This document shows, piece after piece, positions 19,166 through 61,101 of a stretch of 64,000 nucleotides of DNA (position 1 is its first letter; the number at the start of each line of letters is the position of its first letter). Origin of the DNA: Yuukianura sp. NJ FZ-2021 (taxonomy: Eukaryota). The position numbers were made by a program, and so were the translations under genes. The stretch is taken from positions 992,001 through 1,056,000 of the forward strand of contig CM102286.1 in NCBI GenBank assembly GCA_046563655.1, given 5' to 3'. The notes beneath the pieces were generated by a model. The model made no database searches. It was not told the origin of the DNA and saw only the letters and a list, made by a program, of their open reading frames with translations.

Positions 19166-22100
19166 ATGGCACACCGAGAATCAGGCGATGGCAGAGGCAG
19201 ATCAAGAACCACTGGTGACAACGACGGCGATGTAGAAGCAACGTTTCAAGAATACTTGAGACAATGTCAACAACAAGCTGCTGATGATGATACGGTAATT
19301 CGCACTGGAATAACTGTAGTTATTCATGAATACAATTATTATACACTGAATTTGTCTTTCGTAGCACTCTTCTCCTGGAACAAGCGAATCAAACTCTTCA
19401 GCATCTACGGTCATCGATGCATTTGCGAGAATGTCAACAAGAGATGATAATAGAAGCACCTTGCCCAATGAACCATCGCCATTTGCTTCCGGAGTTCCGC
19501 CGAGTCGTGGCAGAGGAAGGGGGAGTGGGAGACCCTTCGACACAGATTCGCACTCAGACTATTCTCCAGGAATGACCCCTCAGCCTAGGTCTCCCTCACA
19601 CATCTCACCGCCGCATGGTGGAGATCGTCCATCGTTTGGAGGTTTGTGATTTAGCATTGTATCATTCAAGGCACCGTGAAACGTGAATCTAACCGTACTT
19701 TTGTTTTACGACCAGGATCAAGTTTGGGCAGAGGTCGTGGTAGAGGCAGCACAGTATTTCCCGAGGCTGTTTTCAGACCAGCAGCGGAAATTCCTATTCC
19801 AGCCTTGAAGCCATCCAAAGGCAGAGGTCGCGGGACAGTTCGACACTTGACCTTGGACGAACCCGGCCCAGGCTTACCAGTAGTAGACCAACTTCCAAAT
19901 CCAGAACAGAGCATGGCACGTTATGATGACGCTCCAGAGCCTGAGCGTGAAACGATTATTCGAAAAGGAGACAAAGGAATAGTGTAAGATTTGTTACTGA
20001 ACAATGACTTTGGATATAATTTCATAGTAACTTTTTAACTTTGTTTTAGAATTCCGGTCACTGCCAACTTCATTCGTCTCGCCGTAGAAAAGGGACGCGG
20101 GCTTTTCATGTACCACGTAGACTTTGAGCCAGAGTTGGCATCAGTTCGTATGAGGCGGTACATGCTACAAGGTCACGATAATATCCTAGGAACAGTGCGA
20201 AACTTTGATGGGGCCAAATTGTACTTGCCGTTTCAGCTTCCTGACTACGAGGTTAACTTAACTCCTGTGATTTTCTTAATATTCCAATAAAGTCATGTTT
20301 ATTTTATTAGACTGTGCTGTACACGACACATCCGACGGAGATTCAACAAACTGTTACGATTACTATTCGTTTCATAAGAGAGAATCGCATGGATGAAAAT
20401 GTTCATTTTTACAACGTCTTATTTAGACGAATCATGGAGAAACTTGGAATGGAGGAAGTCAATCGTAACTTTTACGACTACAGAGCTCGGCATCGACTAC
20501 CAGTTCATAGGTTAGTTAACATCTTACACCAGAATTGACCATTTTCAAATATGATTTCTTATTGTACGAGGCAGACTGGAAATTTGGCCTGGCTATGTTA
20601 CAGCAGTGGATGAATTTGAAGGGGGACTCATGCTTTGCTGCGACGTTTCACACAGAGTGTTACGGACAGCGACTTTGCTGGATGTTTAGTAAGCGATACA
20701 TGACTCAACTCTGCTAAACTTGAATTGTAAAAGGTTGCTGTTGCAAATGTATGTTTAAATTGCTGTAGCAATGACATGCACCATGAAAACAGGGGTAACA
20801 CAGAAAGGTTTCGACAGATGTACCGAGATTATGTAGTGTCCAAAGTCGTCTTGACCAGATACAACCGAAAGAACTACAGAGTGGATGATGTTGATTTTAC
20901 ATTAAACCCACGATCAACGTTTGAATTGGGATCAGGAGAACGGGTAAGCTGCAAAAATACGTTGCAGAATCAAGTACTCTTAAATCTAAGTTGGCGATTG
21001 TTTACTTTTTTAGATTTCGTATGTGGAGTACTACAAAAATCAGTACAATATCACCATCACTGATCTGGACCAACCGCTGATAATTCACAAGCCAAGGCCT
21101 CCCAAAGTGCCTAGAAAAGACAGACGTCCAGTAAGTTCCAACAGAAGTGACTCTTCACTAAACAAAACGTTTTTACATCGATTTTTTGTCATTTCAAATC
21201 GATCTTTGTTTAATTTTAGGTTCTGGAACTTGTTTGTTTGATTCCTGAATGCTGCAATATGACTGGACTCACAGAAGAGTTGAAGAAAGACCACAAAGTG
21301 ATGCGAGATGTCGCCGAGCACACTCGTGTCCCACCGCATCGCAGAACTGTGGCAATCCAAGAGTTTGTCAAAACCGTAAAAGGTAAAGAGTTCAAAATAC
21401 TTTCCCATCTGCATATATTTTAAATCAACTTTGTTGCTTTGCTCTCTGTTTATAGCAAATCCAGAGGCTGCTGAGCTGTTGACAGGATGGGGCTTAGCTT
21501 TAGAAGATGCTACAATTGAATTACCCGCCAGACGTATAGCCCCACCGCACATTGTAATCAACCAAGGCAAAATTCTGACTAAACAGTTCGACTTTACTCG
21601 GGATGCTATGCAAAATCCATGCTTGGAGCCTGTAAGCCCTTCATGATTTTTTTTAAAGTTTAAAGAAATGATGAATTTTTCAATATTTTTTTCAGATTCA
21701 TGTCCGACAATGGGCAATCTTTTGTACTTCCTTTGACAGACCAAAAGCAGAGACATTTGTTGAGCACTACTTCATTGTGTGTCGGAATATTGGAATCAAT
21801 GTACTTGGGAATCCAAAAATTATACCAGTACATGGGCAACAAAGGCGTCTTGTCGAAAGTTTTTCTCGAACCATTATGGAAAACTTGACGAGCAATGTAA
21901 GTCACATGATTAATTTGTCTAAAAATTTTTCAGATTTTGAGAGTTAATTTTTATTTCTCATTTCAGCTCCAATTTGTTGTGGTGATCGTGCCAGCTGAGA
22001 TTGGCGAACTCTACGAATCTATCAAGAGAATTTGTTGCCTTGAACGTCCAATTCCATCTCAAGTTATTCTTGCCAAAACTCTGGGAAATGAACGTCAAGT

Positions 22101-23277
22101 GAGATCAATTGTGTCCAAAATCGCATTGCAAATTAATTGCAAGTTGGGAGGAGCTTTGTGGACAATACGAATTCCCCTGGTCAGTTTAACATCAATTGAA
22201 TCAACAAAATGTAAATTGACTTTCGTGATTGTGTATTTCAGGGTGAGAAGATTATGTTTGTGGGCATGGATGTTTACCACGATCCGAAACGACGGAATCC
22301 ATCGATTCTTGCTCTTGTTGCTTCGTTGAATGAGATGCAAACAAAATACTTTTCTCGAATTGTGTCTCAACGGCGTCACCAAGAAATCGGAGATTCTTTG
22401 AAATCAATTTTTGCTGATTGTCTCAAAACATTTCACAAGGTACAAAGTATTTATTTTGAAATCGACGTGACCTTGACCTTGCAATGTCATTTTGATCTTT
22501 GCAGTGTTCTGGAGTTCTACCAGACAGAATTGTTGTGTTTCGTGATGGAGTTGGGGATGGTCAGTTGGATCTTACAAAAGACACTGAAGTTGTGCAAATG
22601 TTGGACGTTCTGAACAGAATGTACACGGAAATGCCTAAATTCACTTTCACCATTGTCCAAAAACGAATATCGTGCAGGATTTATGGACAAGATGTAAATC
22701 GATTTACGATTTTCCAATTGGTTTGAGTTTTTATGAAAAAATTTTTCAAGAAAATATTGTTGTTTTTTCAACATTTCAGCCCGATACTGGCAGATTCGTG
22801 AACGCTCCTTCTGGAACAGTGCTGGATCACACCGTGACAAGGAAATACTTGTACGATTTCTTTTTGGTGTCACAACTTGTGTTGCAGGTCATTGTCAAAT
22901 GAAAGTATATGCTGTTTAATTATTTAACTTAATTATTTATTATATAATATTTGTTTTTTTTAATCAGGGAACCGTGAATCCTACACATTACATTGTACTA
23001 GAAGATATTGGGAATGTACAGCCAGATTTGATTCAGAAGTTTGCCTTTGCGACGTCCTTTCTGTACTACAATTGGGCAGCGCCAATTCGCGTTCCAGCCG
23101 TGTGTCAGGTAAAAAGTTTGATTTTTGAATTGGCTTGACATTGTACATTTTTTATGATTTTGCGTGACTTATGTTTTCCGAATGTTTCAGTACGCTCACA
23201 AGTTGGCATTCTTGGTTGGGCAGTACATCAAGGAAGCTCCAGCAGACGCTCTCAGTTGTCAACTGTACTACCTTTGA
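19166..23277 (+). CDS. AGO3: PIWI-clade Argonaute, Ago3/Piwil2-like, multi-exon
   Basis: N-terminal GRGRG motifs, WPGYVTAVDEFEGGLML, PAZ (VLTRYNRKNYRVDD), PSQV, QINCKLGGALW, catalytic GMDVYH / QEIGD / FRDGVGDG / YAHKLA, C-terminal LYYL*. Confidence 0.9.
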
Positions 23278-23622: not shown

Positions 23623-23636
23623 GATAGCGTGGCCGA
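23623..23636 (+). pseudogene. 5' fragment (nt 1-14) of an interrupted tRNA-Leu(AAG)
   Basis: GATAGCGTGGCCGA matches the tRNA-Leu 5' end. GATAGCG pairs with CGCTGTC at 26935-26941. Confidence 0.85.
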
Positions 23637-24210
23637 TTGACCACACGCCTGCGCCTCCAAACGCCCTGACACACTATGCGGCCATATTTTTCATTTAAAT
23701 GTATTTATTCTACCAAGACTAGGTTCGGTCATATCTTACCCAAATAAAATAAAAGTATAACAGGAAATGAAATCTAGTTATAACGCTAGTTGTGGATTCT
23801 AAAACAGTCTATAAAGCACTAGTATGGCTAAAACTCTAGGTAAACACTACAATATTGGATTGCAAAACTTATCCGTTCCAGTTCACTTGAGCAATATTCG
23901 TCGCCTAGCAGTCATTGTTCCTGTAACCTATTAGATTTACGGGAATAGTACTACAGAGCTCCACATTAATCTCTGAATTACTTAGGCCGACATAAATTCT
24001 AATATATTGGCTCACTAGAAACTTTAAGTAAATGGAACCATCTAAAGGAGCACGTTAAAGTTTAAGTTGAAGATCGCTACCATCACAAAACATTTAGGAA
24101 ATTAAACATACTAATGAGAAGGTTCGTATGATGTAGGACATCAGACTGTAACGTAACGAAAATCCAAGTTCAAAAAGCGGTCGTATCAACATCAATTGGC
24201 ATTTCCATGT

Positions 24211-26381
24211 TCAACTGCCTTCGAGACCTTCCACTAATGAATAGATTTCATATTCAGCTCCAAATTGATGTGCGTAGAGGTTGTGTACCAAATCCTGGTC
24301 TCGTTCGTTGTCCTTCACGTTGAAAAGATTGTTTATCAGCGAAATTGCGTACCCGCTTCCTTCAATTTCGGATTCTGGAGCTTTTCTTCGGAGGAGAAAA
24401 GCAATCATAGCGCACTGGATGGAGATTGATTCTATGCGGAGTCCGTTCTCTTTGGTCACTTTCAAAATCGGTTTTCTCTTCATTTCCTTCCCTTCGTCAA
24501 TTCCAATGTCGTTGCAATAGATATGAACCGAGTAAACTGGCGACGATGCGAGTGTTGCTGAAGTATGAGTCCTTGCGGAACGGTTAGATAGTTTGGCACC
24601 GATGTAATAACCGTCATATTTTGCTCGACTGTAGACGTACAAATCTTTGGATAAGTCAATCTCTTCAGTATTCCCAATCTTGATAAAAATCGGGTCCAAA
24701 TCAGTTCGAAGTGCAGGAAGTGGCTTTGATCTTAGGCCAACCTCAAATTCCTTCATGTACTTTGTCAATAATTCTCTATTTTTGGAAATGCAAATAGAGG
24801 TCATGAAGTTGATGAATTTTCCCCTCTCCTCGGGAAGATGTGACTTGAGATATGCTGCCGTCTAATATAAATAACCAACCTTGAATATAATCTTTGGCAG
24901 CACAACATATGGTATGAGGAGCTTAAGTTAATGCTAGTTCTTACAGAAATTGCTGCAAATTCACTCATAGCATCCTCCTTTGTCTCAAAAACCTTGACGA
25001 TGGGCGACCTTTGAGCTGCAACAGGACATTTTTGTTGAATAAGATATTTTGTGTTCTTCCACAAAAGTAGACTCTTAGTTTTGATTTCATCTGTAGCATA
25101 GAGTGACGTTGCCGCAAAGGACTGCGTGACCGCCGAGAAGAATGTCTTTCCTCGGTAACGGACAGAAATCCAAGCAACAGTGTAGCACTTGGTTGTGCCA
25201 CAACTTATACAGACAATCCTCTGTCCGTACCACCGCACATTTTTGTCATACGAAAAGCACTCTGCGTAAAAAATAAACAAACAATACATGAGATTGAGAT
25301 TACGTAAACTTAATGTTAACTGTTTAATTTGAGTAACCTTGGCAGAGATTGAAAGAGTGGTTGGATCCCCTGCAGACCAAATGCTTCAAACCCTGATCAC
25401 TCTTGCCAACTTTGAATCGCAGGTTAGGGTATTTCGGAAGAACAAAATTGCCCTTCAAGGCTAGACATTCTCTGTAGTGCCTAGGTTGTAGGACTCCAGT
25501 AAATGGTTGTTGTCGGCTCGCGCGTCTCAACTTAGTCAGAATACCCTTCGCCGCTAACGTGCCGATATGTTTGGTCGAATCTTAAACCAAAAAATGTTTG
25601 ATCTTTTGTTAATATTAATAAACTAGAAGTAAGTTTAATAAAGTTGAAATTATAGCATACTTGGCCTGTCATATTGCATTGAAAAACTCCGTCCTTTCTC
25701 CAAGATGTAGATGTTTGGTTCGTCCGTACTGATATCAAAGAAGTCGACGTCATCCGCCTAGAAATATAACACACCGCGCAGTTGAGTCATACGTATAAGT
25801 GTTATACCTTCAAACAAGAGCGTTTTTCAATAAAATCCAACGAGGTATTTGTTTTATGGTTTGTAGTTGCTGAAGTTAGTACCAATATTGCACAAATTGA
25901 GAGTACAACGCAACACGTTAATAGAAAAACTGGCTTCAAGCAAATGGTATGACTTTAATTAAATTTGTGTTGTCGCTTACCGCTGGCACTGGTGGGACGT
26001 ACCCCAAGGTCTCAGGAGTCTAATTAGAAAAACTTAAAACGTTACTGAGAGTCCATGGAATACCGCCATTTCATTTTTTTTTTGTAATTACCACTTCTAC
26101 CACATTTTGTGTGGCTATGTACTGTTCATCATCGTCCGTGTCTTGTGACACATCATGTTCTGACTGAAATACAAAAAGAAACAAACATATAACGTCATTC
26201 CCACAAGCACATTTAACAACTTTTGCTTAAATTGTATGAATCCCGCAATTAACCTTACCTCAAGAAGCCGACGACCCGACTTGTAAACACAAAACGGAAG
26301 AGTAAGATCTTCTTTTGCATATTCAACGCGGTCATCACTGGAGTCGTTCAATGTCGGATCGTCTTCGGCACTAGAAGACAT
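24211..26381 (-). CDS. Uncharacterised ~500-aa spliced protein inside the tRNA-inserted element
   Basis: In-frame GT..AG exon chain: acidic N-terminus (MSSSAEDD..), Cys/His cluster (LVCRGSNHSFNLCQEC..VCISCGTTKC), and a ~215-codon last exon. Small N-terminal exons are uncertain. Confidence 0.65.
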
Positions 26382-26571
26382 CTTGTTGAGGGATGACAGG
26401 AGAACCAACGGAGAATGACAATGGCAGCTCCGTTTCAAAAAAATGAACTTAAAAATTTAAACTTTAAATGCACTTTAGTTTTAGAAGAGATGAGAAGACG
26501 GAAGTTTTTTATTCGCTTACCATTAGAATTCATCACAGTAGAATCTTTTGAGACCACTTCCAGTACCGAAT

Positions 26572-26652
26572 GGGAGCGTAGCAAAGCGGTTAATGCGCTG
26601 GTTTAAGGCACCAGTCTCTTCGGAGGCGTGGGTTCGAGTCCCACCGCTCTCA
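26572..26652 (+). tRNA. tRNA-Leu(AAG), intact, carried within the element
   Basis: Acceptor GGGAGCG/CGCTCTC-A, A box TAGCAAAGCGG, anticodon arm CTGGT-TTAAGGC-ACCAG, long variable arm, B box GGTTCGAGTCC, downstream T-run terminator. Confidence 0.92.
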
Positions 26653-26875
26653 GTAAATTTTTTTTTTCAATTCTTTCAAACTTTTTTTAGCTCAAAATTG
26701 TTAATTTGTTACCGAAAAATTTTTAAACATTTAATTTAAGTTTGGTTTAATTTAAGTAGGATTTTTTGTTTGCTCCTTCACATTGCACATTCACTCCATA
26801 CTCTGCTTTTCTCATGACAAGGTCAGCATTTCATTTATTACTGAAATTTCATAAAAGTTCCCTGTGGGTCAATTA

Positions 26876-26942
26876 CGGTCTAAGGCGCCAGTTTAAGGCA
26901 CTGGTCTCTTCGGAGGCGTGGGTTCGAATCCCACCGCTGTCA
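26876..26942 (+). pseudogene. 3' portion of the interrupted host tRNA-Leu(AAG)
   Basis: CGGTCTAAGGCGCCAGTTTAAGGCACTGG...GGTTCGAATCCCACCGCTGTCA plus a T-run. The first ~15 nt are missing locally. Confidence 0.9.
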
Positions 26943-27119
26943 CACTTTTTTGCTTTAATTTTTTCATTTTTGATACCCCAGCAGAATTTAAGGTTACCGC
27001 CAAGCGATTTTTCAGAAGAATTTACAAAGCCCGATTTGATTTGATATTTTTCATTCCGGTGCGGAAAAAAAATCTTGCTTCCGTCTACCTCTTTACGCCT
27101 CCATAATTATTGTGAAAGG

Positions 27120-27402
27120 TGAATTAAATTTCCCCGATTAACTTCTCGCCGTTTAAAGTTTCCCCAATTAACTTTTCGCCGTTTAAATTTTCCCCAATTA
27201 ACTTTTCGCCGTTTAAAATCCCCCCAGTTAACTTTTCCCCGTTTAAAATCCCCCCAATTACATTTTCCCCGTTTAAAGTTCCCCCAATTAACTTTTCCCG
27301 TTTTAAATTTTCGCCAATTAAGTATTCGCCAATTGCTAAATTGGCGAAAGTTAAAGTTTTTAATTGGGGAAACTTTAATTGGCGGGGGAAAGTTTAATTA
27401 GT
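27120..27402. repeat. Tandem ~15/30-bp array (ccccaattaacttttcgccgtttaaa) followed by inverted copies; MITE-like
   Basis: About 7 direct 30-bp units, then reverse-complement units (taattggggaaactttaattggcg). Confidence 0.8.
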
Positions 27403-30509: not shown

Positions 30510-31726
30510 ATGATTGCAGAAGCGTTTTTCACCACTCCATTGACTAATACAACGACAAAGAGAAAAAGTAAGCAAACCTTCAAAATTTTGGCAACTTATT
30601 CAACAAAAAGCATTAAAAAGTTGTGTATTTAGAAAAGGAAAACGGAAATATCCAGAAAAAACCTGTGCTTGGAGTCGTTGCTTTTGATTTCGGAGAATTA
30701 AGGGATCCAAAATTTGGAATGTTGCGAATTAGTGGCAAGTTTCCGCGAATTTACTCAAAATTTAAACGCGAGACTTTAGCGGAAGAAGATTTGAAGGAAA
30801 TGAGTGCCAAATTGATGAAATGGTTTAATCCGTTTTTCAAATACTATTTTGAAGGAGACGCTCTACAAGAATTAAGTGAAACTGCTTTCCAGTATGCAGC
30901 ATTCATCTATCCACAAGCGGAAATCGGCAGTACTCAACTCACTTTGGCAACAAAACTTTTTTTCTGGATGTGGATTTCGGACAATGTTGTAGAATTGGCA
31001 GTATCCAAGAAAGTTTCATTTGAAACCCTAAATTCCGGATTTCGTCAGATACACAAACTTTTCAAAAATGGCGACACGAAATTTGTTGAAGTCGAAAATT
31101 TCGCGGGATTTCGCGTCCTGTTTGAATCTCTTATTAATTTACGCGCCGAATTTGTGCAAAATGTACCAAATTTTGAAAGTAGAATTGAACATTTTTGTTA
31201 CTATTTTAAGAATTACTCAAATGCTCTACGCTGGTATGCTGTTGACCACATTGACCACAAATACTCGGAAGAAACTTTTTTGAATTTTCGACGCCATGAC
31301 AGTTTTGCACTTGGATCGTGTGAGTTGCTTTGGATTTTGGAAGGAGGTTGTCTTCCTGAAGATATTTTTGGTGCGCCGTCTCTTCGGCGTCTTCTGGAAC
31401 TTGCAAGTTCCTATTTTGTTTATGTTAACGATTTAGTTGGAGTGAAAAAGGAATTGAAAAATGGTGATTTTGATAGTTTTGTGATGTTTAAAGTTATTCA
31501 AAAGGGCAAGTCACTGACTGAAGCCACCGAAGAAGTGGTGGAAGCCATGAGACGTGACCTTACAGAGTACCTGATACTGCGCAGTACTGTTCTTCAAGAG
31601 TTCAACTCTGACATAAGCTTAACAAAATATTTAGAAGTAGTTGACGCAGTTCTAGAAGGAACAGTCAGATTTCATATCAGTTCAAAGCGGTATCACGCCG
31701 TTGGACTTTCACAAGTGACAGAATGA
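30510..31726 (+). CDS. Microbial-type class I terpene synthase (short 5' exon 30510-30567 plus a long exon from 30633)
   Basis: Asp-rich motif variant SDNVVE, FRRHDS sensor Arg, NSE-like NDLVGVKKE and C-terminal SKRY, in the correct spacing within ~370 aa. Confidence 0.85.
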
Positions 31727-36749: not shown

Positions 36750-39175
36750 ATGGAGGACTCCGCCGTTGCTACTTCTGCGTCGACCCTAAGTACTACTAAT
36801 GCTAACGGTAGCACTGCCAGTGGAATTGGGCTACCATTGATATTGGATGGGAACTTCTTCAAAGTCATTGCCGAAGATGGGCTCAAAGTTACAGGTCAAT
36901 GTACTTTGTGTCCTTCTCGAATCATGGGACTCAAAACTACCACTTCTAACTTCAACACACATTTAAAGGTATGTAGAACTATCCCGAATAATCTAATAAA
37001 CACTATCCAACATCCAGTTTAGGTTCCCATTTGTTACGTAATTGAATCGATTTTCAGAAAATGCATCCAGAGAGACACAGAATTTACGAAGAGTACAAAC
37101 TGGAAAAGGGACAGAACGTCAAGAAACGTCGAACGAGTCATGAGGCTCGAAGTGTGATTCAGTATGCTGGATCAAGCAACCGATCCGTTCCTGCCGATCC
37201 AACAACCGTTCCTACTCAGAGAAACGGGTCAACAGACGATTCTGGTAATGCTGAGGAGCCGTTGAGAGACGAAGAAGGATTTCTACAAAATATTAACGCT
37301 GAACCACCGCTGAAGCGAAAGCTAAGTGCTGCTCCTACCAATACTTCCAGCGGCGCAATACGACCAGGAATACCTCTACCACATCGTCTGAAACAAGGCA
37401 GTATCCCAGCCGCTTCTCTCCCACCTACAATTAAAGCCAGAAGGAAGGAGACGGACGACGTCGTATTTGCCTTTATAATCAAAAGTCTGAGTCCCCCATC
37501 GCTCGTGGAGTCTCCACATTTCACAAGTCTTGTTTCAGGTAAACTTTCGCTTAAATTCGATTGTTAAACGTTTGTCTCGATGGGCCACAGTCAACTTTTT
37601 CTCTTGTCAGGTCTATGTGCCACTCCAAGACGGGTTATGTCTCGAAGCACTTTGGAAAGCCGAATCAACATGCAGTCATTAGTCAAAAGAACAAAAATCG
37701 TGAGAAGTATGGACACTGCCGAAGTCATTTGCGTTACAGTTGATGCTTGGACTCTTTGGAACGACACTTTGAACACCTTCATTGCAATGACAGCCCACTG
37801 GATGGGCCCTTCACTCAACATCCAATCGGCCTTACTTAGCTGTCAACGGTTTCAACAAGATCTCACGTACAACAAACTAGTTGACATCATCTGTGATGTT
37901 TTGACTGTGTACAGTATCCCTTCAGAAAAAATCGGTTGCATTGTTACCAACAACGCTTCAAGTCTCCTACCAACTCGAATTTACCAAATTCATACTTGGG
38001 AAAATGAAGATTCTGGTGATGGCCAAGACAATTTCAGTACACTTTTCGGTCTTAGCAATGTCGTAACAAATGAAGACTTGTCATTCTACAATATCAGCTC
38101 CATATTTTCAGAAGCCAAGAGCAGTGGCGATGCTCCGCCAGATTTTCCTTCACATTATGACTGTCCCACTCAAACGCTTATCGGTGTCCTGGCTACTTCG
38201 ACGTTCGAAACCATGAGTAATCCGGATCACCCGAGTTCATACATTTTCCAACTGGCTGTTGCTAAATGTCAAGCTCTATGGAGTGCCTGTGCAAACAAAG
38301 AAGCTGGAGAACGAATTCAACAAGTTTTTGGCCTCGAAATTCTTATTCCAAATCGTCTCAATTGGGGCTCATTTTTGGAAGCAATGGACTGTCTCCTGGC
38401 TGGTCGTGATGTACTGGATGCAATTTTCAAGTTTTTCGAACTACCGATTCTGGGCAAAAAGGAAATTGAATTTTTGGAAGAGTATGTCAAAACAATGGAT
38501 CCTATTACAGATGCACTCAGTTTACTCCAAGATGTAAACAGTGACTCTTATATGGGCTCATTCGTACCAACAATTCTCACGGTCAAGGAAAAGCTGGAAG
38601 AATTGAAAACTATGAACTTGAAATACACGGAACCATTAGTAGAAAGTTTACTTTCTGGACTGGATGGACCATTTCTGGATATCATCACTCTGGATGAAAA
38701 TGCTCGTCCACTAATTCTTGCTTCCATGCTGCATCCACTGTACAAAGTGACTTGGATCCCTGCTGATAAGCTGGAGGAACTCAAAGGCTGGTACTTGGAA
38801 GAAGCCGGAAATTTTGGGCGCATGATGGAGTCTAATTCAACCAAGTCAATTACTGCTCAAACTTCATCAAAATCGGATGAATCCGAGTCGGAATCGGACA
38901 TTTACGGTACAAATGGCGAATCTTCTAAAGAAGATGTGTCGTCTATTTTGGTTGAGTTTTTAGACTATTTGGAAGCACCAGTAGAACCAGTTGATGGAGG
39001 TCAACTAGACCTGTTTCCCAATGTCAAGAAATTGTTCATCACTTTTAATACTGCAATTGCCTCGTCGGTCCATGTTGAAAAAATTATCAACTTCTCTGAA
39101 GTTAGTTTTGCACCGTCAAGTGCCATTCTTTCTAATGAGTTATTGGAGAAAATGTTAATTCTTAAGTGTAATTAG
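36750..39175 (+). CDS. hAT transposase-derived BED zinc-finger protein (ZBED-like), 3 exons
   Basis: BED finger CTLC..TTSNFNTHLKKMHP, VTVDAWT, MTAHW, ASMLHP, and hAT dimerisation-like FPNVKKLFITFNTAIASSVHVEK. Confidence 0.85.
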
Positions 39176-44393: not shown

Positions 44394-47300
44394 GTTTTTA
44401 ACACCACAATTTCCAAATTGAAACTGAATTTTCTTAAGACAAAAAATTTCCATAACTTTTTTTCACTTGAAATCCCATTTTTGACTTTGACAGACTTTTC
44501 GCTTCTTTTGACGAATGTAAACGCTAAATGATTAACGCTTTTGACACACATTTTTCTAAATGAGAAATTAAACTTTCAGTATTAATCAAAAAGTAATCAA
44601 ACAGAGAAGCTTCTCGATAAATCCGGTTTTAGTACCGGTTTGACCGGAATCCGAAGAGAAACTCGAACTTTATGTGTTTTTAGTCGATTGTCAATATGTT
44701 CTAGGTTAGAAAGTTTTAGCATAAATTGAGTTTTAAAATTTGGATAGCAAAAGTAAGAGCAGGCGGTAAATTTAGCTTGTTTTCAAATATTTGAACACCG
44801 CTACTCATCTTACGAGCACTTGGACGTTTCCAAATGGAAAATTAAATTTTGAAGAGGCCTCCTGTTGGAACTTTCGTCATTTGAATTCAATTAACCGCTT
44901 TCACGTCATTACCAACCACGAGTGCCACGGTGCCACTTCGAGCATGTGGAGCCACCAAGAGCCCCACCAAACAAGCTTCAACGTAATTGGTGGAGCACTT
45001 ATGTTTCCATTAACCTCAAATTCAATTTGAAGGCAGCTAAAACGCTCCAAATGGAGCAGCACAATAAAAAGCCAAAAAGCCATGGAGCAATTTTGGCTCG
45101 AATCGAAGCAAGGTTCAAAAATTTGAATTTTTGCATTTTGGTGTATAAGGATAGTTCGACATTTCATGACAAAGTAAGTTTAAACTTCTAATAGCACAAG
45201 CACGCAATCAAAAAAAAATGTCACAAGGTGTGTCTAGTGACATTCAAAAACACATCGTGAAATTTAACAAAAAAAAAGTTATACCAGAAAATTATACCGG
45301 GCAAACCATCGATATACAGTTGATCATGAAACAGCTTCAAGTTTTTTAAATATTTTAGAAAAAGTATTTTTTAGTTTGGATTTTCATTTTTCTTTAAATC
45401 ACAGCTAACTTTCGTTTTTCAATGCAACAGGAACGTCTGCGCTTGTATTCTTCCGCAGTGGTTTGCATCGTTGCTTGTTTTAAAACTCAGCGTTCCTTTC
45501 TCCACCTCCACCAGTATGGTTTCCGCCGTCCCTGCGCTGCAACGTGCTTCGCTCATCGCTGATTCAAAGATCAGCGCCAGGCGCTTTTCTTTAGAAAAAA
45601 AAAACTGTTTCAAAACAATAACAAACGCAGACCAATTCCAAGAGTCCAGTTTTACGACTTTCAATTCAAAAAAGGGCAGAGTTTAACTGCCTCTCGTAAA
45701 TTGGACAATTTTGTGTCGTCTCTGCTTACACACCAAATTACAAAAACAACAACGGAGAAAGTCAACATAAGCGAAATTACGAACTTTATTGGCCAACTAT
45801 CCACAACATCCACAAATCGTAAAATATCTAATTTACTTTTACAATTTAAAAAAATGTTGACTTCTGGAACAAATTTCTCTAATTTCAAAAGTCATAAAAT
45901 TTTTGTTTTTGTTTTTGCGTTTGAGTAAATATTTTGATCCGATGCCACAAGCGTTTTTTTTTAAATATGACGGAAAATTTTCTCTGACCAGAGGAAATTA
46001 ATTGCTGAGGGATTTGCGGATTTTGCCTGGGACCGTTTAATTATTCAAAATTCTCCTCAAGGGAATCAAAATGCCAAATTTAGCAAAATTGGAAATTTTT
46101 CATAAAAGGATTCATCATTGCAAAATCCTGTTTCAACTTACCCGCGCGGAATGTCATTGTTCAGGGTATTTTGTTAGACTATTAACAAAAACGCGAAATG
46201 CTACAAGGCAAACTATAAGTGCATCAATTTTGAAAAAGTTTACTTTAAAAAATGTCTTTTAAAAAGTGTAGTGTAGTTCAAAAAATTTGCTCAGATTAAA
46301 CTGATATACCGGAAAGTGCCTTGAGGGCATGGATGAAAGCATTACAAACTTTGTCATTCTAGTATCCACACAATTTTGAAAATTTTGAAAAGAGAAATAT
46401 TAACTTTCTCCTGGCTCACTTTTCTCTATTCTGCTAACTTTTTTTTCTTCAAAAAACTATTTTTTCCCTTTGAACTTCTCTTCATTACTGAAGATACATT
46501 TATTCAGTATGTCGTGAATCGTAAAATCTAATTTGTAAAAAATCAGCAAAGGAATAGCAAGGTTCGTTAACTTTTGATTTAGGTTGATTAAACTCAAGCT
46601 TTTTTGTACGTTAATACGTTAGTAGGATTTAAGGTTAGGCTTAGTTACTTTTCCTGTTAGGTTTTTCTGAATTTCATGTTAGGTTTTACGTTTCATGTTA
46701 GGTTTAGGCAGCTTAGGTCAAAAGTTCGTAGGCGTCGTACACACTTTTTTGTTGGTAAAAAGACGCTTAGGAGATGTATGGTCCTTCTAAAAGAGATTTC
46801 CAAGTGTAAGTCTTCTATTAAGTTAATTAATTAGGTTTTGGTCCAGAAGTTGATTCCATTAGGACAGAACACGTCCTTTGGATTTGGATTCTCATAGAAA
46901 CTATGGTTGAAGTAAGGAAACCGCAGCAGTGGGAACGTCAGTCTCGTCAGCCTGTTTTCAACCAAAGACAAGGCACGTGTTTTCTACTAAAGAGAAAGTT
47001 CTGATCTTTTTATACTTTTTTTTTGCTCCTGATGGGATTCGCACCGGAGTTGTAAAAATGACACCAAAAAACACTAGGCGTCCACAAAAATTTTTTGTGC
47101 AAACTTTTACTAGTCTTAGGAAGCTTTAGTGACATTTTGAAAAACGCGCCTCATTTCCTCCAGTGTCCATAAACTGTTTCTAAAAACTTTTTTTTCCGTT
47201 CCGTAGAGTCCAACTGTGGATTCCGAATTCAAATCTTTGTGCTGTTTCAAATGGTATAACTTTTTATATGTAGTACATTGTGCAAAAAAGAGTGGGGGAG

Positions 47301-50526: not shown

Positions 50527-52390
50527 AGACTTCGGGTTTTTCCAGGGTTAGAGGTACAAAAAATAGAAGCCCGGGCGTCTTTTAGAAGCTTTACGGTAAC
50601 CTAACCAGCTCAATGCTGTTGTGCTGCTTGTGTAATACAAAGAACAACCTCAAGGCGGGAATGTTTGACTCTAGAAAGTTGCGGAGAGGCTTTCAAGACA
50701 ATTATTTTGTGCTATGCTGCTTTTCCTTCTTACTTAAGAGCTAAACCCAGCTCTCTCTGGACTTTTAGTACAAAAACTGTTTCCTCTCATAACCAGGTTT
50801 TGTTATTATTATTAAGTTACTTTGGGAGGAGGTTGGAAGAAAGCAGAGGGAGTAACTACTTTCTCTTTGGTTCACTTTATGGTTAGTATTTTGTGCTTTT
50901 GGGAGAGAAAGGAAAGTGAAAGCCGGAATTAGGGAATCCATTTGAGCGGAGAAACAAAGCGAATCTCGTGGGAGATCATCCATTTAACCTCATATTTCCT
51001 GTTTCCCGTCACCATCATAATTCAATCCAAGGCTAAACTTTAACAACTCAACTGAAAAAAAGATTTTTTTTTAGAAGTTGGGCAAATATTTGTGAAATTT
51101 TGTGAATTCCTGGATTCTCTAATTTGATTTTTGAGTAATACGCACAGCGAGTGGTGTAAATAATGAAAATATTTTCTTGGAATTACATAGTACAGCGGAA
51201 TTTGTTTTTGAAAATCAAGCGGAACAAATAAGCAGGGACGTTCAAAATGCTATGTACATTCTGTATTTGTCTGTGTGTTTATCATTTTGGCTTTTGTTAT
51301 GTTGATTTTTTTTCTTTAGAAAACTTCAATTTTGAAAAGAAGCGGAGAAAGTAGTATGTACATTGCATACTTGAAAAAATATTTATGACAATGGAAGCAG
51401 AAAGCCATGGATGTCGTATCCTTTAACATAAACCAACTTTATTCAAGTGAAAGCAAAAGTTGAGCAAAGTTTTGTACGATGCAAAAATTTCCATTTTCGA
51501 TTTTTCTATATAAAAGACTGAAGCTACAGGAAATGACTGATTTTTTTTACGATTTTTGACCTTTGACCTTGGAAAATTCGTCAGATTTTTTTTTAACAAC
51601 ATTGTCTTTTGTTAGGTTATGTTAACCTTTACGTCAGGCTTACGCGTAAAAGGAGCAAACCAATTAAGTTCATCATTGTCCAATAACAAATGAAAGTTGG
51701 TTGACATTTTCGAAACTCAAATGTCAACAAATATTGTTTCTGGATGTTCACAAATTTTGTCCAATTTAATTAACTTCCTGAATCGTACAATGGCAGCTAA
51801 AGTACAACATTGAGTATGTTGGTTTTCGGCCAAAACTGAGCAAAACAGAGACAAAACTTAATTAGTTTTAAGTGTAAACTTAGGTAACAACAACTTATTA
51901 AAAAACTCTTTTTTTAAACTTTTTTTTAGGTCAAACTTCCCAGGCTCGCAATTTCTTCAAAACTTTTTCCCTGTCTGGATTTTTACTTGAAAAACTTCCA
52001 AAAAATTTCAATCATTCCGAGGAACAAGGCGTCTATTTTTTTTTATAAAGCTCCAAAAAAAAGTTTTTGTGGATTTAATGGACAAAAAGTTTAATCAAGT
52101 GAAAAGGACAGACAAAAAACTTAAACTTGACCTGTATATCTTCCAGACAAAGAAAAAGCTTGACTGTCTTTGTGCCACGAGTGATTGACCTTCTTTTTCC
52201 CAAGGCGTCTCGACATTGTCCCATAAAAAGTGCGTAACTGCAGACTTTCACCGAAAAACTCTGGAAAAAGTCGCTTTTGAGCAATTTTAAAAAAAAGTCA
52301 CATGAGCTCACAAAGTACCCAGGTTTTCCAATTTCAAAAACACAGCCACAAATTCTCACAGTGACAAGTGACCTAGAAGCAAAATCCAAA

Positions 52391-55300
52391 ATGGGGTCAA
52401 TGACCTTTGACACAATTCCAACAACCACGGCGATTGAAGATGAAAAAACGATCATGCGCAAACTGAACTTTACTGAAGACATGTACGAGTTTATAAGAAA
52501 CGACGAAGTTGCTGAAATCGCGACGCCATGTATGGATTCCTTTTACGTCATTGGTCAACGCTACAAACTTGCGCATGGCTATATAGCTCTCGTCGTCTGT
52601 TTTTTCGGAACATTTGCGAACATATTCAACCTACTCATTCTAACACGAAAAGAAATGCGAACACCGATTAATCGAATGCTAACAGCACTAGCATTCGTGG
52701 ACATGCTGGTTATGATCGAGTACGTTCCGTTTGCTCTGCGCATGTACATTTTGAATTCACCCGGGAACGGATCTCACTTTACCCGGAACTGGTCGTGGTT
52801 CGTCCTATTCCATTCTCACTTTACTCAAATTCTGCACACAATTTCAATTCAACTAACACTGACCATGGCCATTTGGCGGTTTGTGGTAATCAAATTCCCA
52901 AGCAAATCTGGAGTTTACTGCACTTTTCAAAGATGCTACTTTGCCATTGGAGCAAGTTTTGTCGTTCCGATTTTCATTTGCATTCCAAACTACTTGACTT
53001 TTGCCATCTACCACCGACATCAATTTTACTTTGACGTTCCGTTTGGAGCCATTTTTAAAGGAGAAGCAGACAATGCGCAGACGCTGAAGTGGTTTTGCTA
53101 CCTTCTGGAAGATGATTCTGGAGCAATGGCCATGGATTGCATAGATGCCATTCGAGAAAGAGATGAGTTTTATGTTGACCTGAGTGACCTCGCCAAGGCC
53201 AACAACGGACTTCTCCATGGATTCCATTTCTGGACGTTCTCTGTCGTTGTCAAGCTGTTTCCATGCTTCATCCTCTCCTTTTTCATGAGCTACTTGGTGA
53301 AAGTAAGTCAAAAAAATTTATGACCAATTTGCTGTACCACGCCATTTCTCCGAATGAAATGCTCCGAAGCGAATTATTCCGAATAAATTGCTACGAAACC
53401 AGTTGCTCCGAAAGGGACATTGCTCCGACAGACATATTTTTTCGAAATGGGATTTGGTGTACATTAAGGGGCTTAGAGTTGTAGGATAGGTCGAAAATCG
53501 TAACGTTATAGGCTAACAATCATAATATTCCACTGGTTTGAGTTATAAGTCATTAGGTAAGGTCTTAGTTTATAAAACTATTTTTGGAGCAATTTGCCGT
53601 TCGGAGCAATTCTTTCGAAACAATGGCATGGAACCCACAGTTGCAGACCCCTTGACGAGATTAGTTAAAAACATTGTAAAATCTACCCACGCTAAAAGAT
53701 TTTGAGCCCGTGAGGCATCATTTGAGCAAGTATCAACAATTGAAGCTTCGAAGCGTGTCCAAAACAAAGCAAAAGTGAAATTGGGTTCCACGTGGATTGT
53801 CTCAAAATTTCGATTCATTCCCTCTCTTCTGTTTACTTTGAAAACAGGCCGAAAGTTTGGGAAAAGTTGAGTGAAAGCGGAGAAAGTGCCATTTCAGCTT
53901 AGGCTAATCCAAAACTCTTCTTTGCCCCACTGTCTGTTATTTTGACCTCGTTATCTCACCTCCCGCACTAACAACCCGCCCCCTTCTAACACCCCCCCCC
54001 TATACGAAAGTGGGTGAAGGTGGGGGGGGGGTTAGTGACGATGATGAGGTCAGAGGGGCCTCGCGTGAACAACTTAAGTGGAAGACAAAGACGCCGTCGG
54101 GAGGAATTAGAGGGGAACATGCCAGAAAATGACTTTCTCCCGCCTTTTCCTTCCAAAATCCCCGCGTAAAACATTAGCCCACTTTCTCAACTCGTACTTT
54201 TGAGTCACCCGGTAGTTACGAGGCAAAAAACATGCAATGCATTCGGAATTTGATCAGACGGGACCTAACAATACGTTGTTAAAAACGGAAGTTTTCTAAA
54301 AAAAAAAATAAGTACTAGGTTGAAAAAGTTCATTTCATTTTCAGTTGAGCTCTACAAGATTGAATTTTTGGCACACTTTTTACAAATCAAATTTTGGCAA
54401 ATTTTTTTTCTTGGCAAGAACAGAGTCTTGCATCAGTGAATTGGAAAGCAATCAAATAAATTCAAGGTTTAACGAATCCGTATTGTCCAGAAATTGGAAT
54501 ATGTCACACGCTACCTGGATACAAGGCTGATTTATGGCTCAGTTACCCTAGTAGCAATAAATCTTCAACCGAAATTGATTTGCCATGTCACAGATCACAG
54601 GTCACTGGGTCACTCCAATTACTTTTTCACAGAAACAGCTACTGTATTGATTTTTGAGAAAAAAACATGACATGGAACTTTAATTGACATTGCAAGGGAA
54701 AGTTTTCAGAACTTTAAAAACATTGGACTTTTGATGTTTCGCGAAATGATACAATCTTTGATGAAATTGTTAAAGAAAAACATGAAATGTGTTTCTGTAA
54801 AAACATAAAAAGTTGTAAAAACGGAAAAACTAAAAATAAAAAACAAGTTTTTCCTTTGAACATGTCCGTTAATTTGAACAAGAAAAGTTTGAACATACAG
54901 ATGGATGGTTCTCATCTAGTGGCTCATGAAAAATTACTATACTAATAACAAAAGTTTCAAAGTTTTTCAAATTGGATGTTAAAACTGGATCGTTGTGTGG
55001 TTTCAATTCAAAAATACTCATTTTTGTGGAAGAAAGGCAATTTTGTGCTTTTCTACAAAATCTCAAAACTTCCAAAAAATTGTAAAAGTTTACATTTTTA
55101 AGTTATTTTTGAACGAGATTTCTGGCAATCCAGTCTGGCATGCTGCAAAGCTAATTTTCATTTTTTCAAAAAAAAATTCCGTCGCATCTGCAACTCGCCA
55201 CTGAAATTCTCAGGGACGAGAAAACTTTTTTTTAAACGCAATTTGCTTTGTCTACTTGCACTTAACTTTTTCAAAGAAAAAGAACAGAACAAAAGTTTTT

Positions 55301-58300: not shown

Positions 58301-61101
58301 CTTTTTTTGAACAAAGCGCCTGAAAATATTTATTGGAAGTTCCGAAATTTCTGCACAGCATTGGGCTGTTTTTTGACGGTTTTGTCAGTGTCATAATTTC
58401 CTGGTTTCCTCTTGTTGATACTCGGGCGAAGATGCTCCTTATAGATTTCACTAAGGTGTAAAACATTTGTGTTTTTACTTTTGTAGGTCAAGGTCAAAGG
58501 TCAAGTGAATGCCTAGACTTACATATCGCAGCTCTGACTCCAGTAGCTTGTGAAATTCCAAAGGTCAAGGACGTGTCAAAAGTTGCAAGTCCAAGTTTTC
58601 TTTGCATTTTAGAAAATACTGGAACTCTTCTTGTAAAACCGCGAGTGCAACTGCTGTATTTGAAGTTTCCAAATTTCGGACCCACCCAAATCGGCGTCCT
58701 TTGAACATAGTGTAGTTTCCCAACATCTTTTACAATTGCCGGAATAACTTGAATTGCACTCAGTCCGGATCCGATTACGCCGACGCGTTGACCTTTGAGG
58801 TCAACCGAATCGTCCCACTGAGCTGTGTGCATCATTGGGCCTTGAAAAGCCTCAAACATCTTAGGAATGTTGGGGTTCCACAAATGACCAACGCTGATGA
58901 TTCTGCGAATATAAATTTCAGATTTTCAAAATCCAAAATTCTCATTTTTCCGAAAATTTTACTCACACAAAGTCAAAATCGATAGAGGTGGCTTGTTGCG
59001 TTTCCATGTCTGTGTATGTAACTTTCCAATTTTGAAGTTTTTCGTTCCAAATGGCAGAAGTGACCTGCGTCTTTGTTTTCAAGTGGCTGTACAAGTCATA
59101 CTTTCTTGCAGTACTGCGCATGTACTCAAGTATTTCATGCTGTTTGGCATAGGCATGTGACCATTCTGTTTGAGGACAAATTTCAAATCCAAAGTTCTAA
59201 ATATTTGAATTTTGCTGTTGTTCAATTTTCATAAAAGTAAAATTTTGAAATTTTACCTAAGTTTACTTCAAATGACCAACTGTACATTGCCGACGGGATG
59301 TCACAGGCTGCTCCGGGATAAGTATTTACTAACCAAGCTCCGCCCACATCGCAATTTTTTTCAAAAATTGTGAACGTTTCCAATCCCAACTTCCGTTTAA
59401 GTTGAATTGCAGTCGTGAGACCACCAAATCCAGCTCCAATTATACAAATAGTTGGTGTGCTTCCGTCACTAAAGGTTGCTGCAACCATTGCGCCTCCTCA
59501 GAAGCCAAAATTTTATGATTTTGTTTGAACTAAATTAAACCTTTTTAAAATTTCGCTTTTTCAAAATTTAACACTGTTCACTTTGCCTTCAGTCGTTCAA
59601 ATGGACAAAATTTGCAAGGTGGAGACCAGTTTAATAAGAATTCGAAAACAAAGGGAATTCCACTTCATTTTGTTCCACTGCAATTTTGAATGTTACGTGA
59701 CTGACGTCTATATTCTTCAAAATTATTTACATACGACGCAAGGCAGTTTTTATGGCGTCAGTTTTTGGGAAATTTCATAACAAAAGTTCCGATAAAAAAT
59801 GGAATAAGAAGTTTTTTATTCACAAAAGATTTCCAGGATTGAGAGTTCATAATTTGTGGTTGGGAGCAAAAAACTTGAACTTTAAAGTGGATCACCTTAG
59901 ATTTCAGTTTGTAAAAAAATGATAAGATACATGACACCGCTAATTAAAATCAGATTAATATTAGAAACTACGGCTACAACCAGCAAGGTTTGTTGATTTT
60001 GATTTTCTTTAACAGGTTGGGTAATACCTCATGTTTTTTTTTTTGATTTTGCCAAAAAGTGTCTTTTCATTTCAGGGTAACATAGCCATAAAGAGCGGAG
60101 TTTTTTAAATTTTGAATACGAATTGGTAGCATTTTTTCGGATTGGTAGTTAAGTTGGTACTATTTTTTTTTCCGTCAACAAGCTAGGGAGTACCCAACCT
60201 GTTAAAGAAAATTAACTTTTCGTTGTCGAGGAACCTTGACAACCAGTTTCACACACATAATGATTTATCTCAGACGGAAAATACAGAAAAAGTTCCAAAG
60301 CGTGTAGAAGTTCCCTTTTCTTTTCCTCCAGGAAAACACAGTTTCCAAAAAAATTTTAAACTTGAGAGTATTTCCAGTTTTTCAAACAAAATTTTATTTT
60401 GATTTCAGACGTTGTACAAAGCCAAGAAACGGCATCACAAACTCCTCCAAGGAACAAGTTCAATTCCACGTGGAGCTGGTACCAGCAAAACTATTTTTGT
60501 GGAAGGACCGAGTTCAGTCGTCGCAGAAGACGCATGCGCATGTGACGAAAAGAAATCCAACGGAAGTTTGGTTCATGCTGGAAGGTTGTCTCCTGCCCAA
60601 AGTCAAAAGTCAAGGTCACAAGGTCAATGTCACTCTCCGCCAACTCCATCGTCCCACAACTCACAGGAAGACAAAAGTCACTCCAAAGGGGGCCCAATTT
60701 TGGCAGAATTTCGAAAATTGTCTCATCTTGGCACGCAACCAGGCCCACCTCAGAGAAAAAGTTCGCGCCGAAGTGATCGGACGAGCAAAATGTTGCTGGC
60801 AGTTTTAGCTTTATTTTTAATTACGGAGTTCCCACAAGGAATTATGGCTTTCCTCTCGGGTTTGTACGGCCAAGAATTTTTTAGAAAATGTTATAACTCA
60901 TTCGCAGAGGTGTGGGATATCCTGGCTCTCATTAACTCTGCTATTAATTTCATCCTCTACTGCTTCATGAGCAAGCAATTTAGAACGCAGTTTAGGACAG
61001 TGTTTAAGGTCAACCAATTTCTCTCAGGTCAAAGGTCAAAGGCAGTCCATGTCTCTTGCTTTCAAAGGAAACGGACAGAAGAGATGACCGCAGTAGTGTA
61101 A
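52391..61101 (+). CDS. Class A peptide GPCR, myosuppressin-receptor/dmsr-like (exons 52391-53302 and 60409-61101)
   Basis: [39 protein letters not shown], then a phase-0 splice to [43 protein letters not shown]. Start codon uncertain. Confidence 0.9.
53334..53635. mobile_element. MITE with 15-bp subterminal repeats (ttgctccgaa)
   Basis: Ends gtaccacgccatt / aatggcatggaac. Direct units on the left, inverted units on the right. Confidence 0.6.
57431..59488 (-). CDS. Type I Baeyer-Villiger monooxygenase-like flavoprotein, 6 exons, nested in the GPCR intron
   Basis: [23 protein letters not shown], fingerprint [31 protein letters not shown]. Confidence 0.9.
57808..57925. repeat. Small inverted-repeat element in the last BVMO intron
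   Basis: cgaaaaccataagcgcgaatcagccaagttggcaaca pairs with tgttgccaagttggcgattcgcggttattgttttcg. Confidence 0.7.
59984..60238. mobile_element. hAT-like MITE (CAAGGT family)
   Basis: CAAGGTT...AACCTTG ends, perfect 8-bp TSD ACAACCAG. Confidence 0.88.

Follow-up and report, generated by a model that had tools for sequence, protein, structure and literature searches.

The stretch of genomic DNA analysed here (the window; 64,000 nucleotides) comes from Yuukianura sp. NJ FZ-2021 and covers positions 992,001-1,056,000 of the forward strand of contig CM102286.1 in assembly GCA_046563655.1; all coordinates below are positions within the window. Its central feature is a transfer RNA (tRNA) gene, tRNA-Leu(AAG), that is split into two parts by an insert of approximately 3.2 kilobases (kb) containing a spliced protein-coding gene and a second, complete tRNA-Leu(AAG) gene, the cargo tRNA. 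Here we describe the broken gene, the insert and its termini, and weigh the possible origins of the insert, in particular, that it is a DNA mobile element which targets tRNA genes and brings a tRNA gene of its own.

The split tRNA-Leu gene

The 3' part of the split gene (26876-26942, plus strand) extends from nucleotide (nt) 16 of the tRNA to the discriminator, with all stems intact. It holds the D loop from CGGTCTAAGG onwards, the anticodon AAG, the variable arm, the T arm GGTTCGAATCC and the acceptor strand CGCTGTC, and is followed by a run of six T (26946-26951, plus strand), the RNA polymerase III (Pol III) terminator of the interrupted gene. By itself, this part is called as a tRNA by neither ARAGORN nor Rfam. 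Relative to the 3' four-fifths of the cargo tRNA, which lies approximately 220 base pairs (bp) upstream, it is 89% identical over 62 nt, and the homology begins exactly at the D loop (26876 in the broken gene and 26587 in the cargo).

The missing 5' end was sought with the pattern GRYRGYGTRGCCGA, which was built only from the 3' acceptor strand CGCTGTC, with G.U pairs allowed, and the invariant T8-R9-GCC-GA. This pattern has exactly one match in the 64 kb, at 23623-23636 on the plus strand (GATAGCGTGGCCGA), and none in 100 shuffled sequences; with one mismatch allowed, 7 of the 100 shuffles match. As identified by the pattern match and the acceptor pairing, the 14 nucleotides are nt 1-14 of a tRNA-Leu(AAG), that is, the acceptor strand GATAGCG, T8 and G9, the D-stem strand GCC, and G13 and A14. 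When the halves are rejoined, all seven acceptor pairs form, six of them Watson-Crick and one U.G. The 3' strand with which the 5' fragment pairs is its own (A2-U, U3.G), not the corresponding strand of the cargo tRNA, CGCTCTC.

Computed joins of the two parts, in which the start of the 3' part was varied from 26868 to 26879, were submitted to ARAGORN. Seven of the 12 joins, with starts at 26873-26879, yield tRNA-Leu(AAG), one yields a spurious tRNA-Gly, and the remaining four yield nothing. The join at 26875 produces a tRNA of 82 nt whose anticodon is at position 35, the same as in the cargo tRNA. Nucleotide 15 of the tRNA is either missing or provided by A26875. Thus, two statements of a preliminary description of this locus hold, namely, that the tRNA-Leu(AAG) body lacks a 5' end that lies about 3.2 kb upstream, and that the first 7 nt of the upstream piece pair with CGCTGTC through six Watson-Crick pairs and one U.G; joining the halves, a check suggested in that description, gives a tRNA.

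The two pieces are halves of one gene that was cut at a single point after nt 14. The last nucleotide of the 5' fragment is nt 14, the first of the 3' fragment is nt 15 or 16, and the acceptor strands of the two fragments pair with each other; hence, no reading of the halves other than one insertion event is reasonable. The cut places the A box and the B box 3.2 kb apart, and a run of five T (23687-23691, plus strand), 51 nt into the insert, would stop a Pol III transcript that begins at the orphaned A box; therefore, the broken tRNA-Leu gene should be dead. Pairing is preserved in every stem of the broken tRNA, which suggests that the break is recent.

The insert could, in principle, be regarded as a giant non-canonical tRNA intron. 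Such an intron would have to be transcribed through and excised, and both the T5 run at 23687-23691 and a run of ten T at 26658-26667 lie inside the insert, so this possibility was discarded. The junction region folds no better than shuffled sequences (z = -0.5).

The cargo tRNA-Leu(AAG)

The insert spans 23637-26875 and is 3,239 bp long, or 3,238 bp if A26875 is counted as nt 15 of the broken tRNA. Its GC content is 0.389, compared to 0.374 in both 3-kb flanks. The tRNA gene that it carries (26571/2-26652/3, plus strand) is identified as Leu(aag) by ARAGORN and as a tRNA by Rfam (RF00005; 57.7 bits vs a threshold of 29), with the A box TAGCAAAGCGG and the B box GGTTCGAGTCC, and is followed by the T10 run at 26658-26667 (plus strand), its Pol III terminator. 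This gene is the only one in the window that is called by the standard tRNA callers. It is transcribed divergently from the protein-coding gene, 190 bp from the ATG of the latter. The complete second tRNA-Leu(AAG) with a Pol III terminator, as listed in the preliminary description, is accordingly present.

The cargo and broken tRNAs differ at 14 of the 82 aligned columns, and the differences include two fully compensated pairs in the anticodon stem and one compensated pair in the D stem. Given these compensated stem differences, the cargo belongs to a separate, structurally maintained lineage; judged by this pattern of substitutions, it is a separately maintained isodecoder and not a recent tandem copy.

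The D arm of the cargo reads TAGCAAA where the broken tRNA has TGGCCGA. A 20-mer from this arm, when searched against viral contigs, was found at one locus, within a cluster of six tRNA genes, where it matches a tRNA-Cys(GCA) gene (positions 1451-1526 of the viral contig, minus strand) with identity over all 20 nt. This locus was considered as a potential relative of the insert and rejected: it is a tRNA-Cys(GCA) in a tRNA cluster, unrelated to the sequence studied here. Because the same 20 nt occur in the viral tRNA-Cys(GCA), the D arm of the cargo is of the common class-I type. A D arm of this type is unusual for a eukaryotic tRNA-Leu.

The protein-coding gene of the insert

The protein-coding gene occupies 24211-26381 on the minus strand and consists of seven exons (26381-26259, 26163-26092, 26019-25981, 25757-25661, 25580-25338, 25261-24945 and 24861-24211) that together encode 513 codons and a stop. 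The six introns, of 72-223 nt, all have GT..AG borders, and the frame is open throughout, which bears out the spliced open reading frame of the preliminary description. Codon usage correlates with that of the neighbouring genes at r = 0.785, compared to 0.34 and 0.32 in the other two frames, and the chance of 216 consecutive open codons at this composition is 2.6e-7. By these measures, the insert's gene is undamaged and a true coding sequence. On the minus strand, the interval from the stop codon to the left end holds a single AATAAA (23704-23709), 502 nt past the stop and approximately 70 nt from the left terminus. Given that the only such signal is so close to the left end, the transcription unit fits inside the insert, which thus encloses both the gene and the cargo tRNA.

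The predicted protein has an acidic N-terminus and, in its middle part, a zinc ribbon of the form CxxC-x16-CxxC that extends across the border between exons 5 and 6. When exons were compared to Pfam one at a time, such that the ribbon was split by the intron, exon 6 matched Zn_ribbon_IS1595 (PF12760) at E = 0.0035 and 17.7 bits, under the Pfam cut-off of 25.4 bits, and also produced a noise-level match to DNase_II. The other exons scanned produced no Pfam matches, up to E = 10 for exons 1, 2, 4 and 7 and up to E = 1 for exon 5. A sequence search of the PDB yielded no matches for the last exon and one noise match for exon 6, and a scan of viral contigs with the last exon detected no relative. 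An AF2 model of the last exon, built without an alignment, has a pLDDT of 33.3 and is unusable.

The termini of the insert

The insert begins with TTGACCACAC (23637-23646, plus strand), and an inverted counterpart, GTGGGTCAA (26864-26872, plus strand), lies near its right end. The inverted ends noticed in the preliminary description are therefore present, and they are not perfect copies: over 9-10 nt, TTGA-CCACA aligns with TTGACCCACA with nine matches and one indel, and the right arm stops 3 nt short of the point where the tRNA resumes. These three nucleotides, TTA (26873-26875, plus strand), may be filler, a part of the element or, in the case of A26875, nt 15 of the tRNA. The alignment score of the inverted ends, 7.5, is reached by 112 of 20,000 random pairs of ends drawn from the window (p ~0.006).

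The left end also resembles the target. It is an inverted near-copy of the tRNA flank next to it, GCGTGGCCGA, with 7 identical positions out of 10, a level of similarity that is reached at 516 of the 63,960 positions in the window (0.8%). As a result, an imperfect palindrome extends across the left junction (23627-23646), with the tRNA sequence GCGTGGCCGA facing the insert sequence TTGACCACAC in a hairpin of eight pairs. In addition, each end contains two YTGAC motifs, at +2 and +31 on the left and at +5 and +51 on the right.

At the left junction, the flank is TGGCCGA, and on the right side, TGGGTCAATTA is followed by nt 16, so that the flank is not repeated; the junctions contain no direct repeat of tRNA sequence. 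Candidate duplications of 1 bp (A), 2 bp (AT), 3 bp (ATT or TTA) and 6-8 bp were each assessed by eye, and none gives symmetric ends together with a D loop of normal length.

Two apparent leads from the left end came to nothing. A U6-like or small nucleolar RNA-like sequence at this end was dismissed, with Rfam reporting only snoU105B at E = 1 and a fold z-score of -0.5. A scan of metagenomes for the 14-mer at the left junction yielded 120 loci, 3 of which extend to a 17-mer. In each of these three, GCG is preceded by G and not by the A of the tRNA, and these loci were rejected as relatives of the junction; among the 120, the sequence context was seen for 12 (the three with the 17-mer and nine of low GC content), all of which were taken as chance matches.

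Origin of the insert

On balance, we consider it probable that the insert is a mobile DNA element, not assignable to any family, that targets tRNA genes, carries a cargo tRNA and landed in the A-box/D-loop region, after nt 14, of a tRNA-Leu(AAG) gene. Its mobility, taken separately, is plausible. This reading is the best one because the ends are inverted repeats, the left end mimics the target, the layout is self-contained and the break is located at a known hot spot. The YTGAC motifs at both ends, the intact coding gene and the weak match of exon 6 to the transposase zinc ribbon Zn_ribbon_IS1595 also speak for it. With regard to the last point, the break lies 1 nt past nt 8-13 of the tRNA, which read TGGCCG and are followed by A. 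In the excerpts of PMC8869645 used here, as for all statements below that cite this source, this hexamer is given as the target of Dada-tS, a lineage of the Dada superfamily of transposons. The part of the preliminary proposal that stands is the structure, namely, one tRNA gene cut once by approximately 3.2 kb of DNA that contains a tRNA with the same anticodon and an intact gene. The part that goes beyond this structure, namely, that the insert is a tRNA-targeting element, is weakened by the single copy in the window and by the lack of a duplication, a recognisable transposase and any homologue among the sequences searched.

Indeed, several observations weigh against mobility. No target-site duplication can be read at either junction, and the window contains no second copy or paralogue of the insert. 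Both statistics on the ends are modest and were computed once the pattern had been noticed. The composition and codon usage of the insert are host-like. The differences between the cargo and broken tRNAs are not significantly clustered at the break (5 of 14 fall within 7 nt on either side, p = 0.075). Finally, exon-wise searches of Pfam, NCBIfam and PHROGs did not reveal a transposase, integrase or nuclease domain, and the latter two databases returned only noise. The 216-amino-acid (aa) last exon has no match at E <= 0.001 among 1.84 billion representative proteins, and word-indexed protein searches were empty for exon 7 against longer proteins and for exon 6 against both longer proteins and proteins of similar length. 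Transposase families are normally widespread, so that the missing homologues would be unusual for a transposase.

Several of these observations also favour the main, serious rival explanation, a one-off capture without mobility, which we regard as unlikely but deserving close attention. Under this scenario, a heavily transcribed tRNA gene suffered a double-strand break, and end joining during its repair took in about 3.2 kb of ordinary host DNA, including an orphan gene and a neighbouring tRNA-Leu gene, and the inverted ends are due to chance. A lost base, filler nucleotides and the absence of a duplication are typical scars of end joining, and here, there is no target-site duplication, one base of the tRNA is lost, and the 3-nt TTA is found at the right junction. 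A protein without a transposase domain or homologues is often encountered among lineage-specific host genes. The match of GC content and codon usage to the host and the single copy in the 64 kb fit as well. However, capture requires that the inverted ends (112 of 20,000) and the junction palindrome (0.8% of positions) are both coincidental, and that a random fragment happened to enclose a whole transcription unit and a whole tRNA gene with little to spare. It also leaves unexplained the position of the break at a site in tRNA genes that is known as a hot spot for transposons (PMC8869645).

Improbable, in our assessment, is the possibility that the insert is a short or degenerate member of Dada itself. 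As portrayed in the available parts of PMC3706591, to which all statements below that cite this source are likewise limited, Dada are DDE transposons, 4,666-10,979 bp in length when complete, that insert into genes for tRNAs and small nuclear RNAs (snRNAs) and make 6-7-bp duplications (PMC3706591), in agreement with the background given in the preliminary description. The A-box hot spot at tRNA nt 8-13 is used by many Dada lineages and is reported for five fish lineages and several Perkinsus families, and the target of Dada-tS, TGGCCG followed by AG, includes a hexamer that is also found in tRNA-Leu (PMC8869645). Dada proteins contain an N-terminal CCCC zinc finger and a C-terminal one of the CCHC type (PMC3706591).

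The insert, like Dada, is a DNA sequence located in a multicopy Pol III gene, and the break adjoins nt 8-13, with the Dada-tS hexamer TGGCCG directly to its left (PMC8869645). Both have an intron-containing gene with a zinc finger, which in Dada is a CCCC finger at the start of the protein, and short inverted repeats that resemble the target; in Dada-U6, these repeats are sub-terminal and recur in the target, in parallel with the mimicry between end and target observed here (PMC3706591). In Dada, too, one of the two sides sometimes has a replaced duplication or none (PMC8869645).

In contrast, the insert, at 3,239 bp, is below the minimum size of a complete Dada, encodes a protein of 513 aa and is not flanked by a 6-7-bp duplication (PMC3706591). 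The inverted repeats are terminal in the insert and not only sub-terminal, whereas the Dada superfamily is reported to have no terminal inverted repeats (PMC3706591). In the exon-wise sequence searches, no DDE/DxxH motif was detected in the protein; its zinc ribbon is in the middle of the chain, and the C-terminal CCHC finger of Dada (PMC3706591) is absent, there being no CCHC pattern in the last exon, which contains three cysteines in all. The protein matches nothing in sequence, including whatever Dada proteins are contained in the libraries searched. Furthermore, the insert carries a complete tRNA gene, and the portions of PMC3706591 and PMC8869645 used here report none for Dada. In view of the discrepancies in size, duplication, CCHC finger and sequence similarity, we do not file the insert under Dada.

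An artefact of assembly, in which foreign sequence ended up in a normal tRNA gene through a chimeric join or the collapse of a haplotype, is very improbable. Five sequencing runs are listed for the stretch, none of them an RNA run: four come from one sample, with shares of the stretch's sampled words of 0.90, 0.74, 0.72 and 0.33, and one, from another organism, has a share of 0.06. The runs that contain the stretch thus come from a single sample and may be the assembly's own data, but three of them contain 0.72-0.90 of its sampled words, and one and the same tRNA nucleotide marks both junctions, a coincidence not expected of random misjoins.

Least credible of all, to the point of being negligible, is a chance resemblance between the upstream 14-mer and an unrelated 5'-truncated tRNA pseudogene: although 7 of 100 shuffles match when one or two mismatches are allowed, the match observed is exact, to a pattern that was fixed beforehand by the 3' strand and occurs in none of 100 shuffles, and the 14-mer lies upstream on the right strand, stops at precisely the tRNA position from which the 3' part continues and shows covariation with the acceptor strand that belongs to it.

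Comparison with other integrating elements

Elements of prokaryotes that integrate into tRNA genes, including prophages, share with the insert the use of a tRNA gene as the landing site and the outcome that a functional tRNA of this kind remains available to the host. Prokaryotic integrative elements rebuild the target tRNA through a 3' portion of the gene contained in attP and leave direct repeats. Here, unlike in those elements, the target stays broken, nothing is duplicated, and a separate, complete and divergent gene is supplied. An integrative element with a tyrosine or serine recombinase was rejected on the grounds that Pfam, NCBIfam and PHROGs detect no recombinase domain and that there are no direct tRNA repeats at the ends.

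Among eukaryotic and bacterial transposons, the IS1595/Merlin group attracts attention through the sub-threshold similarity of the insert protein to the N-terminal transposase zinc ribbon PF12760. Merlin makes 8-9-bp duplications. This assignment was rejected as well: the zinc ribbon scores 17.7 bits, less than the required 25.4, a scan of the last exon up to E = 10 does not show DDE_Tnp_IS1595, and there is no 8-9-bp duplication at the junctions. Helitrons have 5'-TC ... CTRR-3' termini and insert between A and T; read along one strand, the termini of the insert are TTGACC ... GGTCAATTA, and along the opposite strand they are TAATTG ... GGTCAA, and a Helitron was excluded accordingly. PIF/Harbinger and Spy elements either duplicate TTA or TAA, or insert between AAA and TTT; they were dismissed, with TTA present at the right junction only and CGA as the left flank. 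Finally, tRNA pseudogenes broken by insertions resemble the present case in that a tRNA gene is inactivated by inserted DNA, and differ from it in that the insert described here is not simple repeat DNA and has a gene, inverted ends and a tRNA with the same anticodon.

A possible mechanism and its implications

If the insert is a mobile element, the following mechanism can be envisaged. The 9-10-nt inverted ends TTGACCACAC and GTGGGTCAA would be the termini of the element, and the zinc-ribbon protein would be its transposase or recombinase. This enzyme might recognise GTGGnnnA, a motif that is common to the ends of the element and the tRNA flank GTGGCCGA; such recognition would explain the specificity for tRNA genes, in line with a proposal made about Dada-U6 and its sub-terminal repeats. 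Loss of the target gene would be offset by the cargo tRNA, although we only infer this function, and the cargo may also keep the adjacent promoter open. The altered D arm of the cargo (TAGCAAA in place of TGGCCGA) could then serve to guard the cargo against insertion of the element into itself.

Tentatively, and with doubts that exceed those attached to a mobile origin as such, we suggest that the insert represents an undescribed family of eukaryotic DNA transposons that home to the A box and D loop of tRNA-Leu and combine an orphan transposase, ends that mimic the target, a replacement tRNA-Leu(AAG) and a D arm that, being altered at the position under attack, would be proof against self-insertion. 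A literature search, which covered listings and the openings of abstracts, did not find a eukaryotic DNA transposon that carries a tRNA with the same anticodon as its target.

Target-specific DNA transposons in small-RNA genes are rare, and Dada is the sole superfamily of this kind described in the parts of PMC3706591 and PMC8869645 at hand. Such transposons are of interest as natural systems for safe-harbour integration. If the mobile reading is true, the insert would be a eukaryotic counterpart of the bacterial integrative elements that keep their tRNA target working, by a different route. If, moreover, the 513-aa protein is the enzyme, it would represent a new lineage of transposases that have a very specific DNA target built in. 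If, on the other hand, the insert stems from capture of host DNA, this locus amounts to no more than a curiosity, namely, a tRNA gene that was broken.

Genomic neighbourhood

The split tRNA gene is situated between two protein-coding genes. Upstream, a gene with a Piwi domain (20800-23277, plus strand), denoted 'Ago3' in the preliminary description, ends approximately 345 bp before the 5' tRNA fragment, so that a candidate transposon is found directly beside a gene for transposon silencing. On the other side of the split tRNA, a sarcoglycan gene starts near 27814. Farther away, there are genes for a UDP-glucuronosyltransferase, a flavin monooxygenase, Srw-like receptors and a terpene synthase with the family-2 terminal domain. 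The region is ordinary gene-rich animal DNA.

Several minor features of the window are worth recording. A tandem array of 15/30-bp units (27122-27334), with about 7 copies of the 30-mer and 86% matches, begins approximately 180 bp past the terminator of the broken tRNA. A T-arm-like 15-mer at 47031-47045 was examined and is not a tRNA. The open frame of the terpene synthase (30617-31726, plus strand), a single frame of 369 aa, contains the C-terminal domain of terpene synthase family 2 (Pfam, E = 9e-18), and its nearest solved structures are terpene synthases, for example, pentalenene synthase (E ~1e-5); it is located among animal-type genes. An open frame of 535 aa at 37568-39175 (plus strand) matches no Pfam family at an E-value of 0.01 or better and is unrelated to the protein of the insert. 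Two open frames encoding Srw-like receptors of the rhodopsin family are located at 52238-53323 and 60403-61101, both on the plus strand.

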